Origin: Chlamydiota bacterium
GTDB lineage: Bacteria > Chlamydiota > Chlamydiia > Chlamydiales > SM23-39
Assembly (NCBI GenBank): GCA_048498835.1
Contig: JBEHXF010000021.1
Location: 1 to 31,489 of the forward strand
Length of the DNA: 31,489 bases
Direction: 5' to 3'
Shown piece by piece: positions 5,825-22,192 of this stretch (its first letter is position 1; every line of letters begins with the position of its first letter). The position numbers were made by a program, and so were the translations under genes. The notes under the pieces are model-generated. The model did not search any database, was not told the origin of the DNA, and was given only the letters and a program-made list of their open reading frames with translations.

Positions 5825-6261
5825 TTCATGTTTTCGACACAAAGCCACCTTCTTTTAAAGCTGCCGTCGAGATAGCCGCTTGTTATGTAGAGTGGGATAA
5901 AACATTACTGCTTCTTCAGTTGCCTCTTCATAAAAAAGAGGCTGGCTACTGGGGTGTGCCTGCAGGCAAGCTGGAGCGCGGAGAAACTCCTCTACAAGCA
6001 GCTAGGCGGGAACTAGAAGAAGAGACCGGAATCGAAGCAAAAGAATCTCAACTGGTCTTTCTCGCAACTCTCTATATGCGTAAGCCAGAAATGGATTACC
6101 TCTACCATATGTTTCAAGTTCGACTTGATCGAAAGCCCAATGTCCATTTATCTTTTGAACACCAACTGTACCGTTGGATTCCAATCGATCAGCTCGAGGA
6201 GACTCCGCTTATGTTGGGTGCTAAAGAATCGCTGGAAAAATACTTTTTGGGGACGCTGTGA
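5821..6261 (+). CDS. Nudix hydrolase
   Basis: Complete Nudix box GKLERGETPLQAARRELEEETGI; ATGA overlap with the upstream stop. Confidence 0.92.
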   Translation: MIHVFDTKPPSFKAAVEIAACYVEWDKTLLLLQLPLHKKEAGYWGVPAGKLERGETPLQAARRELEEETGIEAKESQLVFLATLYMRKPEMDYLYHMFQVRLDRKPNVHLSFEHQLYRWIPIDQLEETPLMLGAKESLEKYFLGTL

Positions 6262-7010
6262 AATACGTTGGTCTACTACTATTTGCTCTTGTCTGCTTTT
6301 TTATTTGGCCAAGAAATTATCGCCCGTTTGAGCCCTCCTTGCTTGCTTATGATATCGTTGATGAAAGCTTTAGCGAATTCGATTGTCCTGGTTTCGATGA
6401 AATCGTGTCACAGCCCCTCACCTATTTAGGCCATGGCAGGCAGGCAATTGCTTTTTCGAGTGGGGATGGAAAGTATGTCCTTAAATTTTTTCTCTTTAAA
6501 CGTTTTCATGATCAAAGCCGAAGCTTTTCTTCCATTCGCAATCTATTCCCAGGGCATCGAAAAATGAAAGACGAGCGCCATTATGCAAGCAGAGAAAAAT
6601 ACATACGCAATGCTCTAAAAAACTACGACACTGTTTTCCGGTCTTTAAAAGAAGAGACAGGTCTTGTCGCTGTCCATTTAAAGGCTCAAATGCTCAACCT
6701 TCCCACTTGTCAAATCATTGATCTTTACGGCAAAATCCATACCATCGACCTCAATCGGGCTTCATTTATCGTTCAGAAAAAAGCTCAGGAGCGGGATTGG
6801 AGCGCAGAAGATATTCTTGCCGTCCGGAATTTGGCGAAGGAAAGAGCTTTAAAAGGCTTTACCGATCACAAGGGTCATCTCAGTCGTCGACATTTTGCAT
6901 TTTTGGACAATAAGCCCATCATGATCGATCCTGGCAATCTTGTGTTTCGCCCTGAAATCCTCGCTGATCCTACAAGTGAATTAGAGCGGCTTGATCATTG
7001 CCGTCTTTAA
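6258..7010 (+). CDS. Membrane-anchored protein with degenerate kinase-like fold
   Basis: N-terminal TM or signal segment; YLGHGRQAIAF (Gly loop-like), YVLKFF (VAIK-like), IMIDPG (DFG-like); GTGA overlap with the Nudix stop. Confidence 0.55.
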   Translation: MKYVGLLLFALVCFFIWPRNYRPFEPSLLAYDIVDESFSEFDCPGFDEIVSQPLTYLGHGRQAIAFSSGDGKYVLKFFLFKRFHDQSRSFSSIRNLFPGHRKMKDERHYASREKYIRNALKNYDTVFRSLKEETGLVAVHLKAQMLNLPTCQIIDLYGKIHTIDLNRASFIVQKKAQERDWSAEDILAVRNLAKERALKGFTDHKGHLSRRHFAFLDNKPIMIDPGNLVFRPEILADPTSELERLDHCRL

Positions 7011-7066
7011 TGATTGCCCTAAATAACCCGTTAAATTAAAGATCGGGTTAAGAATCGAGGGGTATC

Positions 7067-7849
7067 ATGAGTTGGACTGTCGCCTATCTTCCCGTATTTG
7101 TACCAATAGATCAGGGGCTACAAGAAGATGAACAGAAAAAAAAGCTAGCTTTTCGCCATGATCAAACGCAAATTGCAGTGGGTGGAAATAAAGAAGCCCT
7201 CTCGAAGCGAATCACTCAAATACTCAAAGGGCAGATATTAGGAGCTGAGTTTCCTCGCACTCCAATTGACTTACGTAATATCGATACGATTTGGGAATTT
7301 TATGCTCAAGCGTTCCGGTTTTATGGACCCACTTACAAAAAAAATGTTTGCCCGCTAGACCGAAATTGCCGATCAACAATTTATTGCAAAAATCGACATG
7401 AGACAGATCCGATCTTCCACATTACTCTTGGCCCATTGGAGGAAGTAAAAGAGATTCAAGTCATCGACTTTCAAGCGCGCGATGGAAAATCCTATGATGA
7501 GATAGGGAAGACCCATCTTGCATTTAGAAAACTATTTTTTCAGACCTCTGATTGGACTGAAATTATTCAAAGAAAAGTGAAAAAAGGGTGTCGTAAACAC
7601 AAAACCCCCTTTCTTTGCACTATGCATCGATTTAGCCAGCAAGAAAGAAGATGTGGATATGCTCACTCTTTTGAAACGCTTATTTCGCGTCTCATCATAC
7701 ACACTCCGGAACAAGCGATGACTGAAAAATGTGACTATGAACTAGCCGACTGTCCGTTTGGAGCAGCATGCCCAAAGTCCCATGAAGAAGAACCTGTTAG
7801 AATTGGAAATTTCTGGTTTTGGGACGGAGAAGAGAAAAAAGAGGATTAA
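7067..7849 (+). CDS. Hypothetical protein with three CCCH-type zinc-finger-like motifs
   Basis: GAGGGG RBS upstream. C95-x5-C-x5-C-x3-H, C175-x8-C-x11-C-x3-H and C222-x6-C-x5-C-x3-H. Confidence 0.7.
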   Translation: MSWTVAYLPVFVPIDQGLQEDEQKKKLAFRHDQTQIAVGGNKEALSKRITQILKGQILGAEFPRTPIDLRNIDTIWEFYAQAFRFYGPTYKKNVCPLDRNCRSTIYCKNRHETDPIFHITLGPLEEVKEIQVIDFQARDGKSYDEIGKTHLAFRKLFFQTSDWTEIIQRKVKKGCRKHKTPFLCTMHRFSQQERRCGYAHSFETLISRLIIHTPEQAMTEKCDYELADCPFGAACPKSHEEEPVRIGNFWFWDGEEKKED

Positions 7850-8190
7850 TGGAGTCTATTTCCATTCGGGATTGAGGTTCCTGGCTCTAAGAGAACAATC
7901 GCGCTAGATTCATCAGACAAGCCAAGAACTAATACCTCAGACATGAATTTACCGATCTGCTTAGGCGGAAAATTCACAACCGCAATCACCTGCTTGCCAA
8001 TGAGATCTTCTTTTGCATATCGGATCGTGATTTGGGCGGAGGAGCGCTTTTTGCCGAGCGGTCCAAAGTCAATCTCAAGTTGATAAGCCGGTTTTCGAGC
8101 TTCGGGAAAATCCCGTACTTGAAGGATTGTCCCAACTCGAATGTCGACTTTCAGGAAATCGCTGAATGAAATGAGATCACTACTTGTTAT
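7846..8190 (-). CDS. csaA: tRNA-binding OB-fold protein / chaperone CsaA (missed by ORF track; non-canonical start)
   Basis: Manual translation: (M)TSSDLISFSDFLKVDIRVGTILQVRDFPEARKPAYQLEIDFGPLGKKRSSAQIT...VIAVVNFPPKQIGKFMSEVLVLG...PNGNRLH*. Putative ATA start at 8190, 6 nt after GGAG. Confidence 0.9.
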   Translation of the reverse strand: MTSSDLISFSDFLKVDIRVGTILQVRDFPEARKPAYQLEIDFGPLGKKRSSAQITIRYAKEDLIGKQVIAVVNFPPKQIGKFMSEVLVLGLSDESSAIVLLEPGTSIPNGNRLH

Positions 8191-8860
8191 AGAGAGCTCC
8201 AGTTTTCATACCATTCCACTCTTCCTGCGAAACAAGATGAGTCCAATTTTCCCAATTTTGACGGTAGTTTTCGACTTCTGTCTCTTCGACCCAATGAAGC
8301 TTAGCGCCCTGTTCGATTTTGTCAGGAAAACGGATGCCATTGAGATGATCGATCTCATGTTGAAAGATGCGCGCCGTATAATCGGTATACTCGCCAGTGA
8401 TGAGCTGACCCTCTCTATTGTAAGCGCGGATTTTTACACTTTTCGCTCTCGGCACAACTCCGACTACATGATGGTCTACTGAAAAACATCCTTCTTTCCC
8501 TTCGACGAGTTCCGAAGACTCTGAGATGATTTCTGGATTGATAAAGACTGTGAGCGTTCCAAGTTCTTTTTTCGTCTGTTCGATACCGATATCAACCAAG
8601 ATGATCCTCTTGAGAATCCCAATTTGAGGAGCTGCAAGGCCAACCATGACTCGGCCCCCCTCTTCAGTTCGTTCGCCCTGAGCTATAGAGAACATCGTAT
8701 TGATCAATCCTTGAATTTCCGGGGATTGAATGTCTTCGGGAGGAACGGAGAGAGCGGTTGATTGGAGCAGAGGATCGGATGGGTGATTAAATGGAGTCAT
8801 AGAAGGCTCTTCGGCTGCGAGAGTTGCTGTAAGGATGAGGAGAGAAAGGAGGGTCTTCAC
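8180..8860 (-). CDS. def: Peptide deformylase with possible N-terminal signal peptide
   Basis: Motifs GLAAPQIG, EGCFS and QHEIDHLNG. The ORF-track start (8920) lies inside the tRNA, so the start is GTG 8860 (MKTLLSLLILTATLAAEE) or ATG 8800. Confidence 0.9.
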   Translation of the reverse strand: MKTLLSLLILTATLAAEEPSMTPFNHPSDPLLQSTALSVPPEDIQSPEIQGLINTMFSIAQGERTEEGGRVMVGLAAPQIGILKRIILVDIGIEQTKKELGTLTVFINPEIISESSELVEGKEGCFSVDHHVVGVVPRAKSVKIRAYNREGQLITGEYTDYTARIFQHEIDHLNGIRFPDKIEQGAKLHWVEETEVENYRQNWENWTHLVSQEEWNGMKTGALYNK

Positions 8861-9093: not shown

Positions 9094-9192
9094 ATTCTTT
9101 TCGCGTATTTGTATTTTCTCTCCATGAATTGTAAAAATATATTTACACAAAACTAACACATTCTTTATGAAATGAAAAAGGCGGAGGTTCTT

Positions 9193-9552
9193 ATGACTCC
9201 TTCCAATCCCATCCATAGTTTACCCGAAGAAATCCTTATTCATATCGGCACTTTCCTCGATGCAGAGGACGTCGGCTCTTGTCAAAAAGTTGCTAAAAGT
9301 TGGCACAAAGCGCTGCAAGATCGCTCTTTGTGGGAGGAACTGATCCGTCCCCTCCTCCTTCAATTCCCCGATTTTGAGCGGCTCGAAGATCCAAAGAAAA
9401 CCTATCGACTTCTATACAGATTGCTCTATACAAATGAAGAAGAATTAAACGTGCATCTAGAAAAGACCTGCGCCAAAATGAAAATGGATGACCGGATCTA
9501 CTTCTTCCATAATTCTGGCCTATCTAAACGCCACCTGATGATCGGCGTCTAA
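9193..9552 (+). CDS. F-box domain protein (eukaryote-like effector candidate)
   Basis: IHSLPEEILIHIGTFLDAEDVGSCQKVAKSWHKALQDRSLW matches the F-box consensus. GGAGG RBS precedes ATG 9193. Confidence 0.85.
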   Translation: MTPSNPIHSLPEEILIHIGTFLDAEDVGSCQKVAKSWHKALQDRSLWEELIRPLLLQFPDFERLEDPKKTYRLLYRLLYTNEEELNVHLEKTCAKMKMDDRIYFFHNSGLSKRHLMIGV

Positions 9553-16194: not shown

Positions 16195-18204
16195 CTATTC
16201 CTTTTCTTCAGATTTATTATCGCTCGTGGAGAAAAACGATTTTACTTTTTCAAAAATTGGCACGGCAACAACTCGCCCTTTTTTGCATTGGGCACATTCG
16301 GTAATTCCTAGCTTTCGTAAAAAGTCTGGGATAATTTTATTCTCAATTTCTTTTGCTGCATGTAAAAGGGAATGGTGGTTCTGGCTTGTTTTATGAAAAT
16401 CAAAACCATGATCTAAAAAACACTCTAAAATGGATTGAGTTATGTGAGGAGAGATATAAGCCATTCTTCCTACGTGTAGAAATAAAGAAGCAGGATCGTT
16501 TGCAGCTCCCTGTTCTATAAGATAAGAAAGTTTCTCTTTAAAACTGTTGCTATTATTTTGTGCCCACTCCAGCAAACATTCCTCTGCAATAGAAAAACGA
16601 GAATCAGTTGTAATTCCGAACTCCTTAAAATCAATCTTCCCAAATTCTTCTATTATTTTTAAAAGTGGTCGCCAGTGCCTTTTTAATAATGCCTGAACAA
16701 TCAATTTACGTTTCCATTCCGCATTCTGAATGGCTTTCTTTACAGTTAATTCATTAAGAATGCGAACTAGCTCCAGATTTATATCTTCTTTATCATCAGT
16801 GCAACTGGCTTGAATTGCGATTTCAAGTGGGGAAGTATGATTAGATGGATTGGGATCCGCGCCACCATCTAGCAATGTCCTTAATATGAAAATATGGCTC
16901 TGTTCTAGCCTATAGGGCGGCGGGTCCACTACACAATTAAGCGGTGACTCGCCTTTCTTGTTGCGAAGATTTAGATCAGCTCCCCTTAAGATGAGTTGCT
17001 GAACCTCTCCTATTTCGCCGCTTTCAACCGCCTCGTGAATAAGCGCATTCCCATTCAGATCTAATTGATTTACATCTAGAATGGAATAGAGGTAGTCAGC
17101 ATTCTCGTTGTGTCTTTTTTCTCTAGCTTTATTGAAAGCAGAAACCAGAGCCGCGGGATTTATATGTGGATGAGAAGCTAATTGTTTGACCACTTCTAAG
17201 TGGCCGTTTTCAGCCGCTAAAACAATCGCGTTTGGCTGATTTGGATCCACCTTTGCCGCTAATCTCGCTTCAATTGCAGCAGCATCGCCGTTTTCTGCCG
17301 CAACATCAATAGGTATTAAATTAACCAACCCATCGATGATTAGTTTGCCTTGTGAATGAAAAGCCTTTTGCAATCTTGCAATAAGCCGATTTTTTCTTTC
17401 TCCAAAAATATCGTTGAGATCTTCTAGCGAGTAGAGGGCGTAATCGGCTCCTTTAATTCCCGCTTTTTTGACATCTTCTTTAGAAATCGGTTTTCCACGA
17501 ATCGAAACGCCAATAAAATTAAATCCCGAAACGTCTACTTCTTCTCTCTTCAATTTAGAAAGCAGATCTATTTTAAAATTGAATCCTTGGGCGCGATCTA
17601 AGAGTAAATACAGGCCTTGAGCGCGCTCATTAGGAGAAAGGTTGCAATCAATAATACGGTTGAATGCATAAGTGAGATCTCCGCCATGATCCAACAGCAG
17701 GTCAACAATTTCTGGGCAGTTTTCGGTAGCCGCTAGCCATAAAAAATGATATCCACGAATCGGGTACGGCTTTTTAGATAAGAGATACTCTACAGCAACA
17801 CGATTGCCTGCCTTGGTAGCCTCTTCAAGTTCGTATTCTCTACCCACCTCACCTTTCTTGAATTTCCAAAGGTCACTTTCCAATGCACCGAGATCCACTA
17901 GACGTTTTACCTGGTCGAGATCGCCAACGCGTATGGCTAGGCAAGTTATAGGATATTTCCCATCAACAGCTTCAGAAACAGGAAAGGCTTCATCTAAAAA
18001 TAGTTGAGTTACATCATGTTTGCGATTCAAAACCGAATCTCGAATGAGCTGGCTCAATTTAATATTTGGGTGACCCGGCACATCTGCCTTCCACCAATCG
18101 TAAGATCGCCTTTTTTTTGCATTCTGTATAGCTGAACGAATTTCAAGGAGAGAAAGAGGATGGTCTGCTACAGGAAATGATCTTTCTTTAGTTTGTACGA
18201 CCAT
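16195..18204 (-). CDS. Ankyrin-repeat protein (effector candidate)
   Basis: Repeats such as GNALIHEAVESGEIGEVQQLILRGADLNLRNKKGESPL, AIVLAAENGHLEVVKQL and LWLAATENCPEIVDLLLDHGGD. Confidence 0.88.
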   Translation of the reverse strand: MVVQTKERSFPVADHPLSLLEIRSAIQNAKKRRSYDWWKADVPGHPNIKLSQLIRDSVLNRKHDVTQLFLDEAFPVSEAVDGKYPITCLAIRVGDLDQVKRLVDLGALESDLWKFKKGEVGREYELEEATKAGNRVAVEYLLSKKPYPIRGYHFLWLAATENCPEIVDLLLDHGGDLTYAFNRIIDCNLSPNERAQGLYLLLDRAQGFNFKIDLLSKLKREEVDVSGFNFIGVSIRGKPISKEDVKKAGIKGADYALYSLEDLNDIFGERKNRLIARLQKAFHSQGKLIIDGLVNLIPIDVAAENGDAAAIEARLAAKVDPNQPNAIVLAAENGHLEVVKQLASHPHINPAALVSAFNKAREKRHNENADYLYSILDVNQLDLNGNALIHEAVESGEIGEVQQLILRGADLNLRNKKGESPLNCVVDPPPYRLEQSHIFILRTLLDGGADPNPSNHTSPLEIAIQASCTDDKEDINLELVRILNELTVKKAIQNAEWKRKLIVQALLKRHWRPLLKIIEEFGKIDFKEFGITTDSRFSIAEECLLEWAQNNSNSFKEKLSYLIEQGAANDPASLFLHVGRMAYISPHITQSILECFLDHGFDFHKTSQNHHSLLHAAKEIENKIIPDFLRKLGITECAQCKKGRVVAVPIFEKVKSFFSTSDNKSEEKE

Positions 18205-19623: not shown

Positions 19624-21015
19624 ATGACTACGAGCCTAACAAAATACCCGGAGGGAAGTATCCGGGAACTCTGGAGCATTTCACTGCCGTTGATGATTTC
19701 AACGCTGGCGTCGCTCTTTATGATTTTTACTGACCGTATTTTCTTGGCTCGTTATTCAGTGGAAGCTCTGAATGCATCGGTAAACGCCGGAACGTTAGCC
19801 TGGGCCATTTTAGTTGGCTTTGGAATGATCACCGCGATGTCGGAGGTGTTTGTCGCTCAGTACAACGGAGCGAAAAAATACGACCGGATCGGCATTCCGG
19901 TTTGGCAGATGATTTGGTTCTCGATTTTCTCGCTTGCCTTGTTTATTCCTCTTGGGATGTGGGGTGGCGATTGGATTTTCAAAGGAAACCAACTAGAAAC
20001 GACCTATTTCCGCTGGCTGATGTATTTTGGGCCCAGCTACGCTCTTTTAACTGCCTTTGCCGGATTTTTTATCGGTCGCGGTCAAACATCGGTCATGATT
20101 TGGCTTGCGGTCTTTGCCAACTTGTTGAATATCCTTCTCGATTGGGTGCTGATTTTTGGTATTGAAGGGTGGATTCCTGAAATGGGAATCCAAGGCGCAG
20201 CAATGGCAACGTGCACGGGCTACTTCTTTGAAGCGGCGATGCTCGCTTTTCTTTTCCTGCGCAAATCGAATCGAGAGGAGTTTGGTACGGGCAATTGGAA
20301 AATCGACTGGACCGAGATGAAGCGATGCATTCGGATCGGGTTTCCTCAGGGACTCTTTTGCGGTCTTGAAGTATTTGGCTGGTCGGTCTTCTATTGGATG
20401 ATGACCTCTCTCGGAGAAATGCATATTACGGTCTCGAGCATCTGCCAGAGTTTTACCATTCTCCTCTCTTTTTTCTGCGACGGATTGAGCCGAGGAGCTG
20501 CCTCGGTTGCAGGAAATTTGATCGGCGCTAGAAAAACAGAGCTTATTCCTCGCGTTCTTCGTTCTGGGGCGGTTTTATTGGCCCTTTTCTCGTTGGTGAC
20601 GGTCGGCTTTTTGGTGATCGATCCGCAAGATACCGTTCGCGTCCTCTTTTTTGAGAGCTTTGATGCAGCGCCAGCCGCTGTAGATCCCGCTTTGCAAGGC
20701 GCGTTAAAATCGTGCATGACATGTGCATTTATCTACATGTTCTTCGAGGGGTTTAGATGGCTCCTATCCGGAATTTTGGTGGCTGCTGGAGATACATTCT
20801 TTCTCCTCGTTGCCGGAGCGAGTTCCGTCTGGGTATTCTTGCTTTTACCGATTTATCTCATCGTCGTTCAAAATCATCTGTCGGTGGAGTACGCATGGGC
20901 CATTGCAGCTGTCTATAGCGCTCTATTATTGAGTGTTTATGGAATTCGTTTTGCGCGCGGTGCTTGGAAGGAGATGCAACTCATCGAACCTCCTACTGAG
21001 CCTGCTGAAGGGTAA
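19624..21015 (+). CDS. MATE-family efflux transporter
   Basis: About 12 TM segments; TDRIFLA, VAQYNGA, NILLDWVLIFG..MGIQGAAMAT and GNLIGA. Start placed at ATG 19624. Confidence 0.9.
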   Translation: MTTSLTKYPEGSIRELWSISLPLMISTLASLFMIFTDRIFLARYSVEALNASVNAGTLAWAILVGFGMITAMSEVFVAQYNGAKKYDRIGIPVWQMIWFSIFSLALFIPLGMWGGDWIFKGNQLETTYFRWLMYFGPSYALLTAFAGFFIGRGQTSVMIWLAVFANLLNILLDWVLIFGIEGWIPEMGIQGAAMATCTGYFFEAAMLAFLFLRKSNREEFGTGNWKIDWTEMKRCIRIGFPQGLFCGLEVFGWSVFYWMMTSLGEMHITVSSICQSFTILLSFFCDGLSRGAASVAGNLIGARKTELIPRVLRSGAVLLALFSLVTVGFLVIDPQDTVRVLFFESFDAAPAAVDPALQGALKSCMTCAFIYMFFEGFRWLLSGILVAAGDTFFLLVAGASSVWVFLLLPIYLIVVQNHLSVEYAWAIAAVYSALLLSVYGIRFARGAWKEMQLIEPPTEPAEG

Positions 21016-22192
21016 AGTGTAACAGATAAGCGATGGACTTCGCTCTCTCGGCCTGTTCTGCTGTCAACCTTGTCACGACATGATCGTTTAACTCAAACCA
21101 CTCACCGTTTTCTTTGACATACGAGATGTAATGGCCCATGTGTGGCGTGTTTCCAGGTCCTCGGTGAACGAGAAAAGAATCGAGTTCGTATTCGGGAGCC
21201 GCTCCATCGACAATTGGGAAGGGGGCTCTGTCTGGAACGGTTACAGGTGTTCCTATCTTGATTGCCTCACCGGGATAGATAAATCGTTTGAGTTGCACCC
21301 AACAAGCGGCTGGCGCTTCTGTAAATCGATAGGTTGTATCGATCGGTTTATAACGGTGCATTACTCCATCTACGCCCATCCTATCGATTCCATCTGGGTC
21401 GTGGTCTGTACCATGGAGACTGTTTGGAATGAGATCGAGAAGGTTTGCTGCCCCAGGCTCTTCTCCATTCACAGACATCTCGACAGGAAGTAGGCCGGGA
21501 TTTCGAGATGTGAGTTTAATGACAGCTTGAGGATTATCCAAAATGTCAGGAAGGCCTGTCGTATCTAAGCGAATGGTCGTTTCGATTACCGCTTTTTGGT
21601 TATCAGGAATGAGATGGTAAAGAATTTGGAGTCCTTCCGTAGGATCTTGTTGGGTCGCGCATGAGGGTGGAATTTGATTTGTGATTCCTGCGATGAATTC
21701 CCTCATCGGCTGAGTGGAAGTTAACGCATGACTCCAATTGTGTTCATAGGTACCTTGATACGATTCGTAAAAATGGCGGAGCGGCTCGCCGGCCTCATTG
21801 TTTTGAATCCAATCCATCAAAGGTCTATCTTTTCGAAGGAGTTGCAAGAGCGAATTTAGCCAGCAATTATTCCCCTCTCTTAGTAACCCGCGGGGAGCAT
21901 GAGGTGCCATGGCTGAAGGAGGTAGCTGTGGTTTTAATTGGATGCCTTGAGCGGGCTTATTGAAGAGAAAGGCTGTCGCAAAACTGAGGCCGATGGCGGC
22001 AAATGGAACTGCGAAAGCGGCCAATCCAACCGGAAGCGCCGAGTAGAGAAGAAAACAGGTGGCCAATGGAATTAAAATGCGAAAAGCGATTTCGGCAATG
22101 ACAGAAGAGGTTTGTTGCCAGCCCGGAATAGTTGTTTGAACAGATAGAGACTGGATTGGCGTTGGGGCAATTGGATTCAGTGCAGACATCAT
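20993..22192 (-). CDS. USP-family (peptidase C19) deubiquitinase with N-terminal hydrophobic hairpin
   Basis: Cys box GLLREGNNCWLNSLLQLL, QQDPTE, QLKRF, and His box YELDSFLVHRG...GHYISYVK...WFELND. Confidence 0.9.
   Translation of the reverse strand: MMSALNPIAPTPIQSLSVQTTIPGWQQTSSVIAEIAFRILIPLATCFLLYSALPVGLAAFAVPFAAIGLSFATAFLFNKPAQGIQLKPQLPPSAMAPHAPRGLLREGNNCWLNSLLQLLRKDRPLMDWIQNNEAGEPLRHFYESYQGTYEHNWSHALTSTQPMREFIAGITNQIPPSCATQQDPTEGLQILYHLIPDNQKAVIETTIRLDTTGLPDILDNPQAVIKLTSRNPGLLPVEMSVNGEEPGAANLLDLIPNSLHGTDHDPDGIDRMGVDGVMHRYKPIDTTYRFTEAPAACWVQLKRFIYPGEAIKIGTPVTVPDRAPFPIVDGAAPEYELDSFLVHRGPGNTPHMGHYISYVKENGEWFELNDHVVTRLTAEQAERAKSIAYLLHFTLQQAQ

Follow-up and report, generated by a model that had tools for sequence, protein, structure and literature searches.

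Sequence comparison identifies P0001, the product of the gene at positions 7067–7849 of the window, as belonging to a chlamydial family of TTP-type tandem-finger proteins with a patchy distribution, within which it is an eroded form with two units. The window, the whole stretch of DNA analysed here, is one complete 31.5-kb contig of a chlamydial MAG (1.97 Mb, 97% complete). The finding is of a known TTP-type domain in an unexpected kingdom, in the form of a remodelled variant. A 2016 review notes that prokaryotic proteins with two or more CCCH fingers were yet to be identified (PMC5031192), and a literature search that extended to a minority of the subscription journals returned no report on multi-CCCH proteins in chlamydiae. 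Canonical chlamydial members may already have been labelled by automatic annotation. Within the genomes surveyed here, one chlamydial family has multi-CCCH proteins in roughly one genome in five; such proteins are also present in a second chlamydial family, and they often form tandem arrays.

The original prediction had described an open reading frame with three Cys/His motifs, and each residue lies exactly where it had been placed (Table 1). Among 20,000 shuffles of the protein, none held three loose motifs and seven held two; of the strict pattern P0001 holds two, and no shuffle among 20,000 did so. The TTAA common to the stops of the gene and of convergent csaA is likewise present, and the gene is indeed AT-richer than its core neighbours, with 41.4% GC against 46.3% for def, 49.1% for leuS and 51.3% for kdtA. 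Against a background of 1,471 proxy genes from this genome (median GC 47.0%), it falls at the 13th percentile for GC and at the 7th for GC3 (34.2%). The gene is AT-richer yet no GC outlier, since two other genes are similarly low, namely the one just upstream (43.1%) and, elsewhere in the window, an ankyrin gene (40.4%). No promoter or terminator for the gene was found above chance. The identity of csaA is clear from TIGR02222 (152.9 bits against a cut-off of 119.65), and in same-genus genomes csaA lies among unrelated genes, hence it is not a conserved neighbour of the P0001 gene. The csaA frame (window 7846–8205, minus strand) contains no in-frame ATG, GTG or TTG, and its start must be CTG, ATA or ATT, overlapping the def stop. 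The gene upstream of P0001 (window 6258–7010, plus strand) has no Pfam match and belongs to a multi-copy family; 26 of 31 related genomes have this family, and its copies often form tandem arrays.

Table 1. Features of the P0001 gene, its product and the adjoining sequence (window coordinates)
Feature	Position	Strand	Remarks
GAGGGG, Shine-Dalgarno-like	7057..7062	+	4 bases ahead of ATG; read from sequence
P0001 gene, 260-aa double-unit tandem-zinc-finger protein	7067..7849	+	
Family unit 1 (aa 37-158)	7175..7540	+	Profile A4 domain 1, aa 82-118, 13.8 bits
Finger 1, C95-x5-C101-x5-C107-x3-H111	7349..7399	+	All four putative ligands kept in paralog
Family unit 2 (aa 158-256)	7538..7834	+	Profile A4 domain 2, aa 176-248, 24.0 bits
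Basic patch, aa 166-195	7562..7651	+	Net charge +9; flanks finger 2
Finger 2, irregular, C175-x8-C184-x11-C196-x3-H200 as first read	7589..7666	+	
Inter-finger linker, helical	7667..7729	+	21 aa; TTP has 18, most family members 20
Finger 3, C222-x6-C229-x5-C235-x3-H239	7730..7783	+	Model pLDDT 90-93
Convergent csaA, neighbour outside the system	7846..8178	-	Shares TTAA 7846-7849 with P0001 stop

Eukaryotic contamination of the metagenome bin is hardly credible as the source of the gene. Such contamination probably does occur in another bin, where a CCCH match to a five-finger protein (L012, G228:C22) lies on a eukaryotic-looking contig. The P0001 gene, however, is intron-free and stands between bacterial genes (csaA, def, tRNAs, kdtA and leuS) on its 31.5-kb contig; moreover, a paralog is found close to gyrA on a different contig, and family members in other genomes are flanked by long bacterial-type genes.

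A phmmer search over 1.84 billion representatives returned two proteins, P0001 itself and one protein of 348 aa (E 2.6e-15). This sole sequence relative is the paralog (P0002, locus L001) in the same genome (contig C12:38255–39313, 348–352 aa), and is 31% identical to P0001. It keeps eight of the nine cysteines (C95, C101, C107, C184, C196, C222, C229 and C235), the histidines H111, H200 and H239, and the 21-residue linker, with C175 not kept. Retention of 11 of 12 putative ligands and of the linker at 31% identity points to selection, and the conservation of Cys and His residues in homologs that the original prediction implied is borne out in this case for all but C175. The same retention, together with an intact frame that carries a ribosome-binding site, makes it quite improbable that P0001 is a decaying remnant that no longer has a function, even though its fingers are eroded, its GC3 is low and another CCCH gene of the genome, on contig C79, is split over two overlapping frames. 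That gene (C79:139–656, L003) lies in a contig end region, each of its frames holding one finger, and resembles at its N-terminus a further, intact CCCH locus (C18:33433–33975, L002). The paralog itself has a Pro- and aromatic-rich N-terminus and lies downstream of gyrB-gyrA-tmk-like genes.

Other direct searches gave little. No CCCH family of Pfam matched P0001 or its paralog at E ≤ 1, NCBIfam and PDB sequences contained no match for P0001 or for its two-row alignment with the paralog, and word-indexed protein searches, run with P0001, with the C18 protein and with the two-row alignment, yielded nothing beyond these proteins and the paralog. Scans of P0001 patterns against viral and genome collections, and of a family core against phage records, found no relative. 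Three weak genome matches of P0001 (E 0.004–0.008) were noise on inspection, and one metagenome match was a short chance alignment in a 1,507-aa eukaryote-like Cys-rich protein.

The wider family was seen in related chlamydial genomes. Of 103 genomes in the taxonomic family, 12 had PF00642 matches above its cut-off, as did 9 of 300 in the order and 1 of 14 controls; the last figure means that single matches need inspection. The shared build found on inspection comprises a leading helix, a finger, a linker of the form HS...P-x-(F/Y)-K, a second finger, His-x-Gly-Asp and a Trp-bearing tail. P0001 has the corresponding features, with a profile match, an HS-helix-P-x-K-x-x-x-C linker within the 20–21 residues of the family, His-x-(G/E)-(D/E) and a Trp tail. 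A first 7-row local model ranked P0001 only sixth of 6,715 ORFs. The 7-row profile (A2), built from five genomes, had the P0001 gene as its best match in the genome of P0001 (E 4.9e-4), and it matched in 21 of 102 other genomes of the taxonomic family, 16 of them outside the model. Four of these 21 genomes (G274, G301, G302 and G356) hold more canonical TTP-like proteins, which match over the fingers only.

Profile A4, which carries the family assignment of P0001, was made from 22 domains of related chlamydial genomes with no row from the genome of P0001 (two rows were omitted, one for its ambiguous residues and the other for its reversed finger order). When it was run locally on the 6,715 ORFs, P0001 came first (37.2–37.7 bits, E 9.8e-10), followed by the paralog (34.6–35.7 bits), with two domains in each. 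When both proteins were shuffled with Cys and His fixed, none of 1,000 shuffles reached the real scores (maxima 20.4 and 21.6 bits), hence the likeness exceeds ligand spacing. Removal of L035, a row weakly touched by the profile of P0001 itself, still left P0001 with 35.9 bits. A remote genome search with A4 gave no match in the genome of P0001 at E ≤ 0.005, for which the first-look filter of that search is the likely cause; the remote search with A2 had found P0001. At order level, A4 matched in 9 of 301 genomes; the clear new cases were two genomes of a second chlamydial family, with five and three matches in tandem arrays with 18-residue linkers, and the others were helicase-fused single fingers or weak. 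Genomes of this second family (G074 and G097; L156, L157, L165, L168 and L169) hold three to six tandem-finger genes each, with a three-strand-like tail.

Judged by these profile matches, P0001 is built of two copies of a family unit and not of three independent fingers. Unit 1 has a leading helix-like segment, no first finger, a linker ending in YGPTYK, a second-type finger and an extended tail. The loss of its first finger is mirrored in family member L114 in alignment A7, where the columns of C95, C107 and H111 are invariant across 26 rows. Unit 1 joins the chlamydial family at 95/91 support in a tree of 40 rows and 67 columns, in which 7 of 37 branches are well supported and the branch of unit 2 is long; this tree excludes every single-finger core and three rows that were single-finger or unparsed. 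Unit 2 has a leading helix, an irregular first finger, the 21-residue linker with its helix, a regular second finger and a Trp-bearing hairpin. Compared directly, the two units gave at most 4.5 bits, and since tandem paralogs are common in the family, fusion of paralogs is as likely an origin of the double unit as duplication. A dsRNA-binding domain at aa 70–175, considered for its strand-helix pattern, was dropped because both flanks match the family unit.

The ligand set of finger 2 is uncertain, as C175 is the only Cys dropped by the paralog. C184 and C196-x3-H200 are conserved, and the fourth ligand may be C175, H187 or missing. For the first Cys, C184 is more likely than C175: HMM alignments and the distance from the leading helix favour C184, which lies 21 residues from W163 (family range 20–39 in 21 rows; C175 would give 12), whereas MAFFT puts C175 in this position. 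In the paralog, finger 2 reads C-x4-C-x9-C-x3-H, the same spacing as in family member L110. AlphaFold2 with 31 rows gave unit 2 a mean pLDDT of 72.8, with 78–93 over aa 198–247 and 54–59 over finger 2 (aa 168–197), and modelled a helix at aa 202–212 and hairpin strands at aa 243–246 and 249–252; from the single sequence it gave a useless pLDDT of 32. Fold searches with the unit 2 model found no match at E ≤ 0.001, an absence that rules out no family, and the best matches, all insignificant, were CCCH structures (1rgo, E 0.97; 2d9m, Z 2.7, rmsd 7.5 over 57).

Among solved structures, A4 matched best to TTP (1m9o, E 4.1e-12) and TIS11d (1rgo, E 7.3e-12), with both fingers and the linker aligned, and the alignment to TTP/TIS11 (ZFP36; PF00642) also takes in YKT-type lead-ins. 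Against Unkempt (5elk), A4 reached E 4.8e-7 over one finger only (profile 31–59). PF00642 was matched by 8 of the 22 family cores at E ≤ 0.05, and PF23035 was touched by two. The link from P0001 to the TTP domain therefore runs through two steps, P0001 to A4 and A4 to 1m9o/1rgo, and is not direct. Hence the CCCH-type fingers of the original prediction stand by way of a chlamydial family of TTP descent, with no direct zf-CCCH match at E ≤ 1, and its likeness to TTP or Unkempt holds for TTP/TIS11d (E 4e-12), whereas Unkempt is further away (E 5e-7) and aligned in one finger.

P0001 nevertheless departs from TTP in several ways. TTP/TIS11 fingers are spaced CX8CX5CX3H, whereas those of P0001 are x5-x5-x3, x8-x11-x3 (or irregular) and x6-x5-x3; the linker has 18 residues in TTP in the 1m9o alignment, and 21 with a longer helix in P0001 and its paralog. 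Lead-ins are of (R/K)YKTEL type in TTP, and those of P0001 (TYKKNV, HKTPFL or RKVKKG, and AMTEK) are partially alike. In addition, P0001 is bacterial, has an added leading helix and Trp hairpin, holds two units per chain and is without long disordered flanks. TTP has two stacking aromatics per finger, and P0001 keeps two of six, at positions that we take to be the stacking ones from the 1m9o alignment. Finger 1 has neither (S103 and N109), finger 2 keeps Y198, and in finger 3 F231 is kept and K237 replaces the second aromatic. Across the chlamydial family, the aromatic at the position two residues before the His is present in 15 of 20 and 10 of 18 cases. By its defining features, P0001 lies outside the TTP family, and it probably works like a TTP protein in part.

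The loss of aromatics is one ground for a different host-directed role, in which the fingers are only a zinc-stabilised scaffold and a host protein, not RNA, is bound by the linker helix and the Trp hairpin. We regard this role as unlikely, although not negligible. Two of six aromatics are kept and none in finger 1; the linker helix, finger 3 and the hairpin are the best-conserved and best-modelled part; and family members L114, L105 and L109 persist despite loss of a whole finger or its His. However, Y198 and F231 remain, and a strongly basic patch, a candidate RNA-contact surface or nuclear import signal, flanks finger 2. In the TIS11d study, fingers of canonical CX8CX5CX3H spacing bind single-stranded AU-rich RNA, and each finger holds UAUU with main-chain pockets and a pair of aromatic side chains (PMC1635273). 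As base recognition in TIS11d is largely through main-chain atoms (PMC1635273), loss of side chains need not abolish RNA binding.

Export is suggested by the genome setting. Type III export genes of the sctU and sctV families (PF01312 and PF00771), the two components covered by our apparatus search, are adjacent on contig C11. The window also contains eukaryote-like candidates, namely F-box (9172–9552), ankyrin-repeat (16195–18204) and ubiquitin C-terminal hydrolase (20993–22192) genes, and encodes a TLC-family transporter. These three kinds of domain and the TLC-family transporter are expected in an intracellular chlamydia. N-termini rich in S/T/P/N are typical of type III cargo. In 41 chlamydial CCCH proteins, the median S/T/P/N content of N-termini is 32% against 20% for the genes of P0001's genome, a comparison whose p-value overstates the difference because kin are treated as independent and one genome serves as background. 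The first 25 residues of P0001 itself are not enriched (16%, 18th percentile), and this composition, unlike that of type III cargo, fits a protein that acts inside the bacterium as a regulator binding chlamydial RNA. Such a regulator is improbable, as the family was not found in any of five same-genus genomes (86–95% complete) or in about four fifths of the genomes of the taxonomic family; moreover, its members share 20–45% identity and occur at unrelated sites, unlike a housekeeping regulator, and csaA is no conserved neighbour.

Taken as an effector, P0001 would leave the bacterium by its type III system and enter the eukaryotic host cell, where zinc would give fingers 1 and 3 their fold, and probably also finger 2 with its irregular spacing. 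Fingers 2 and 3 with the basic patch would bind single-stranded host RNA, and P0001 would occupy host mRNA sites, shielding them from host CCCH proteins or competing with these. We propose site occupancy rather than deadenylase recruitment as by TTP, because P0001 has no catalytic domain and no NOT1 motif. The changed spacings and the linker helix suggest an RNA target other than the classic UUAUUUAUU element. In TTP, a C-terminal motif and low-complexity disordered flanks bring in CCR4-NOT (PMC12350847; PMC5031192), and the motif at the C-terminus that binds NOT1 is missing in many true TTP/TIS11 members (PMC12350847). A pattern for this motif occurs in none of 43 chlamydial CCCH proteins, and a looser pattern is found in P0001 only inside finger 2.

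A host-directed role is supported by the type III genes, the eukaryote-like domains in the window and a patchy, fast-evolving family that has expanded in tandem at variable sites. Against an RNA-binding effector of TTP descent stand the loss of aromatics, a finger 2 with no sure fourth ligand, the N-terminus, the lack of TTP-like flanks, the absence of direct Pfam, NCBIfam, PDB and fold matches, and the missing A4 match in the remote search. An exported competitor for RNA sites is favoured by the two of six aromatics, the basic patch, the absence of a hydrophobic segment (maximum 19-residue hydropathy 0.71; pI 8.0), of a catalytic domain and of a NOT1 motif, and the short flanks. On balance, the chances seem to us even that P0001 is a diverged zinc-binding TTP-derived protein acting as a host-directed RNA-binding effector that competes for host mRNA sites.

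As to origin, the original prediction had suggested acquisition from a eukaryotic host. A recent pick-up by the genome of P0001 is not needed, since the gene descends from a family already widespread in related chlamydiae. P0001 scored a median of 33.6 bits (19.1–42.3) with nine-row subsamples of this family, against 18.4 with a model of the second chlamydial family and 24.3 with a nine-row one of canonical chlamydial and viral domains; for the paralog, the respective values were 36.6, 10.1 and 5.4. Because the family subsamples outscore both other models, the immediate ancestor of P0001 is chlamydial. The tree was not used for origin, as it has no eukaryotic rows and poor support.

How the domain first reached chlamydiae is a separate matter, and its arrival from a giant virus of a shared protist host, not from the host genome, is in our view doubtful. 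Giant-virus and iridovirus CCCH/TZF proteins (PF19242 and unnamed clusters) resemble P0001 in being eukaryote-type tandem fingers in an intracellular parasite. TTP-like fingers occur at five viral loci, and iridoviruses encode TTP-like domains according to the 2016 review (PMC5031192). CCCH proteins of Nucleocytoviricota were near the top by language-model features and gave weak fold matches, all below significance, and those of giant viruses were nearest to P0001 by such features (0.82–0.88), which we treat as a lead only. However, no significant sequence or fold match was obtained, the viral domains examined have neither the leading helix nor the linker-helix pattern, viral relatives of helix-linker type were looked for in four scans and not found, and the model with canonical chlamydial and viral rows falls short of the family subsamples, above all for the paralog.

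More broadly, a tentative reading, to which we give slightly less than an even chance, is that environmental chlamydiae took up the TTP tandem-finger module and remodelled and expanded it into effectors that are injected and recognise host mRNAs by their sequence. On this reading and with the same reserve, the remodelling would comprise the leading helix, the helical linker, the Trp hairpin, new spacings and double units, and the class would range, equally tentatively, from near-canonical copies (G274, G356 and G412) to the eroded P0001. The near-canonical members make the effector idea directly testable with standard TTP assays. If these proteins are effectors, bacteria would control the fate of host mRNA by a sequence-reading domain borrowed from eukaryotes, and a class of bacterial effectors would mimic the host's own mRNA-decay adaptors. 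Moreover, the canonical-to-remodelled series would then allow us to ask how RNA specificity depends on the spacing of the fingers and the length of the linker.

Other known systems are similar in part. Unkempt (5elk and 5elh; PF23035), like P0001, has clusters of three irregularly spaced CCCH fingers. It has six fingers in two triplets plus a RING, whereas the three clusters of P0001 come from two tandem units about 63 residues apart and the RING is not matched. In Legionella, an intracellular bacterium, PieF offers a precedent, as it is reported to be a translocated protein that alters host mRNA decay and binds the nuclease module of CCR4-NOT (PMC11774319, PMC12255788); P0001 would differ by reading RNA with a borrowed host domain.

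Several relatives in other genomes have distinct settings or fusions. Three tandem TTP-like two-finger genes, one near-canonical, with Ser/Thr-rich N-termini (L031:6383–9299, G274:C2), lie between ABC permease and ABC ATPase genes resembling lolE and lolD. Proteins of about 1,050–1,110 aa (L011, G260:C49; L014 and L029, G220:C1) combine an IGHMBP2/Upf1-like helicase with one C-terminal CCCH finger; their helicase domain matches TIGR00376 at E 2e-70, below the cut-off, and they are candidate RNA-helicase effectors. In one genus, a single CCCH finger is followed by a common unnamed C-terminal domain of about 170 aa (L016, G194; L076, G334). In the single-finger members L104 and L124, a low-complexity stretch precedes a C-terminal PRNILFG motif, which presumably recalls cyclin-binding motifs. 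At L099, L104, L111, L120 and L121, an obgE-like GTPase gene or a neighbouring transporter gene adjoins the family gene, and the same site in the genome of P0001 (C48:4324–4788) is occupied by an unrelated 154-aa orphan, which suggests a hot spot for variable genes.
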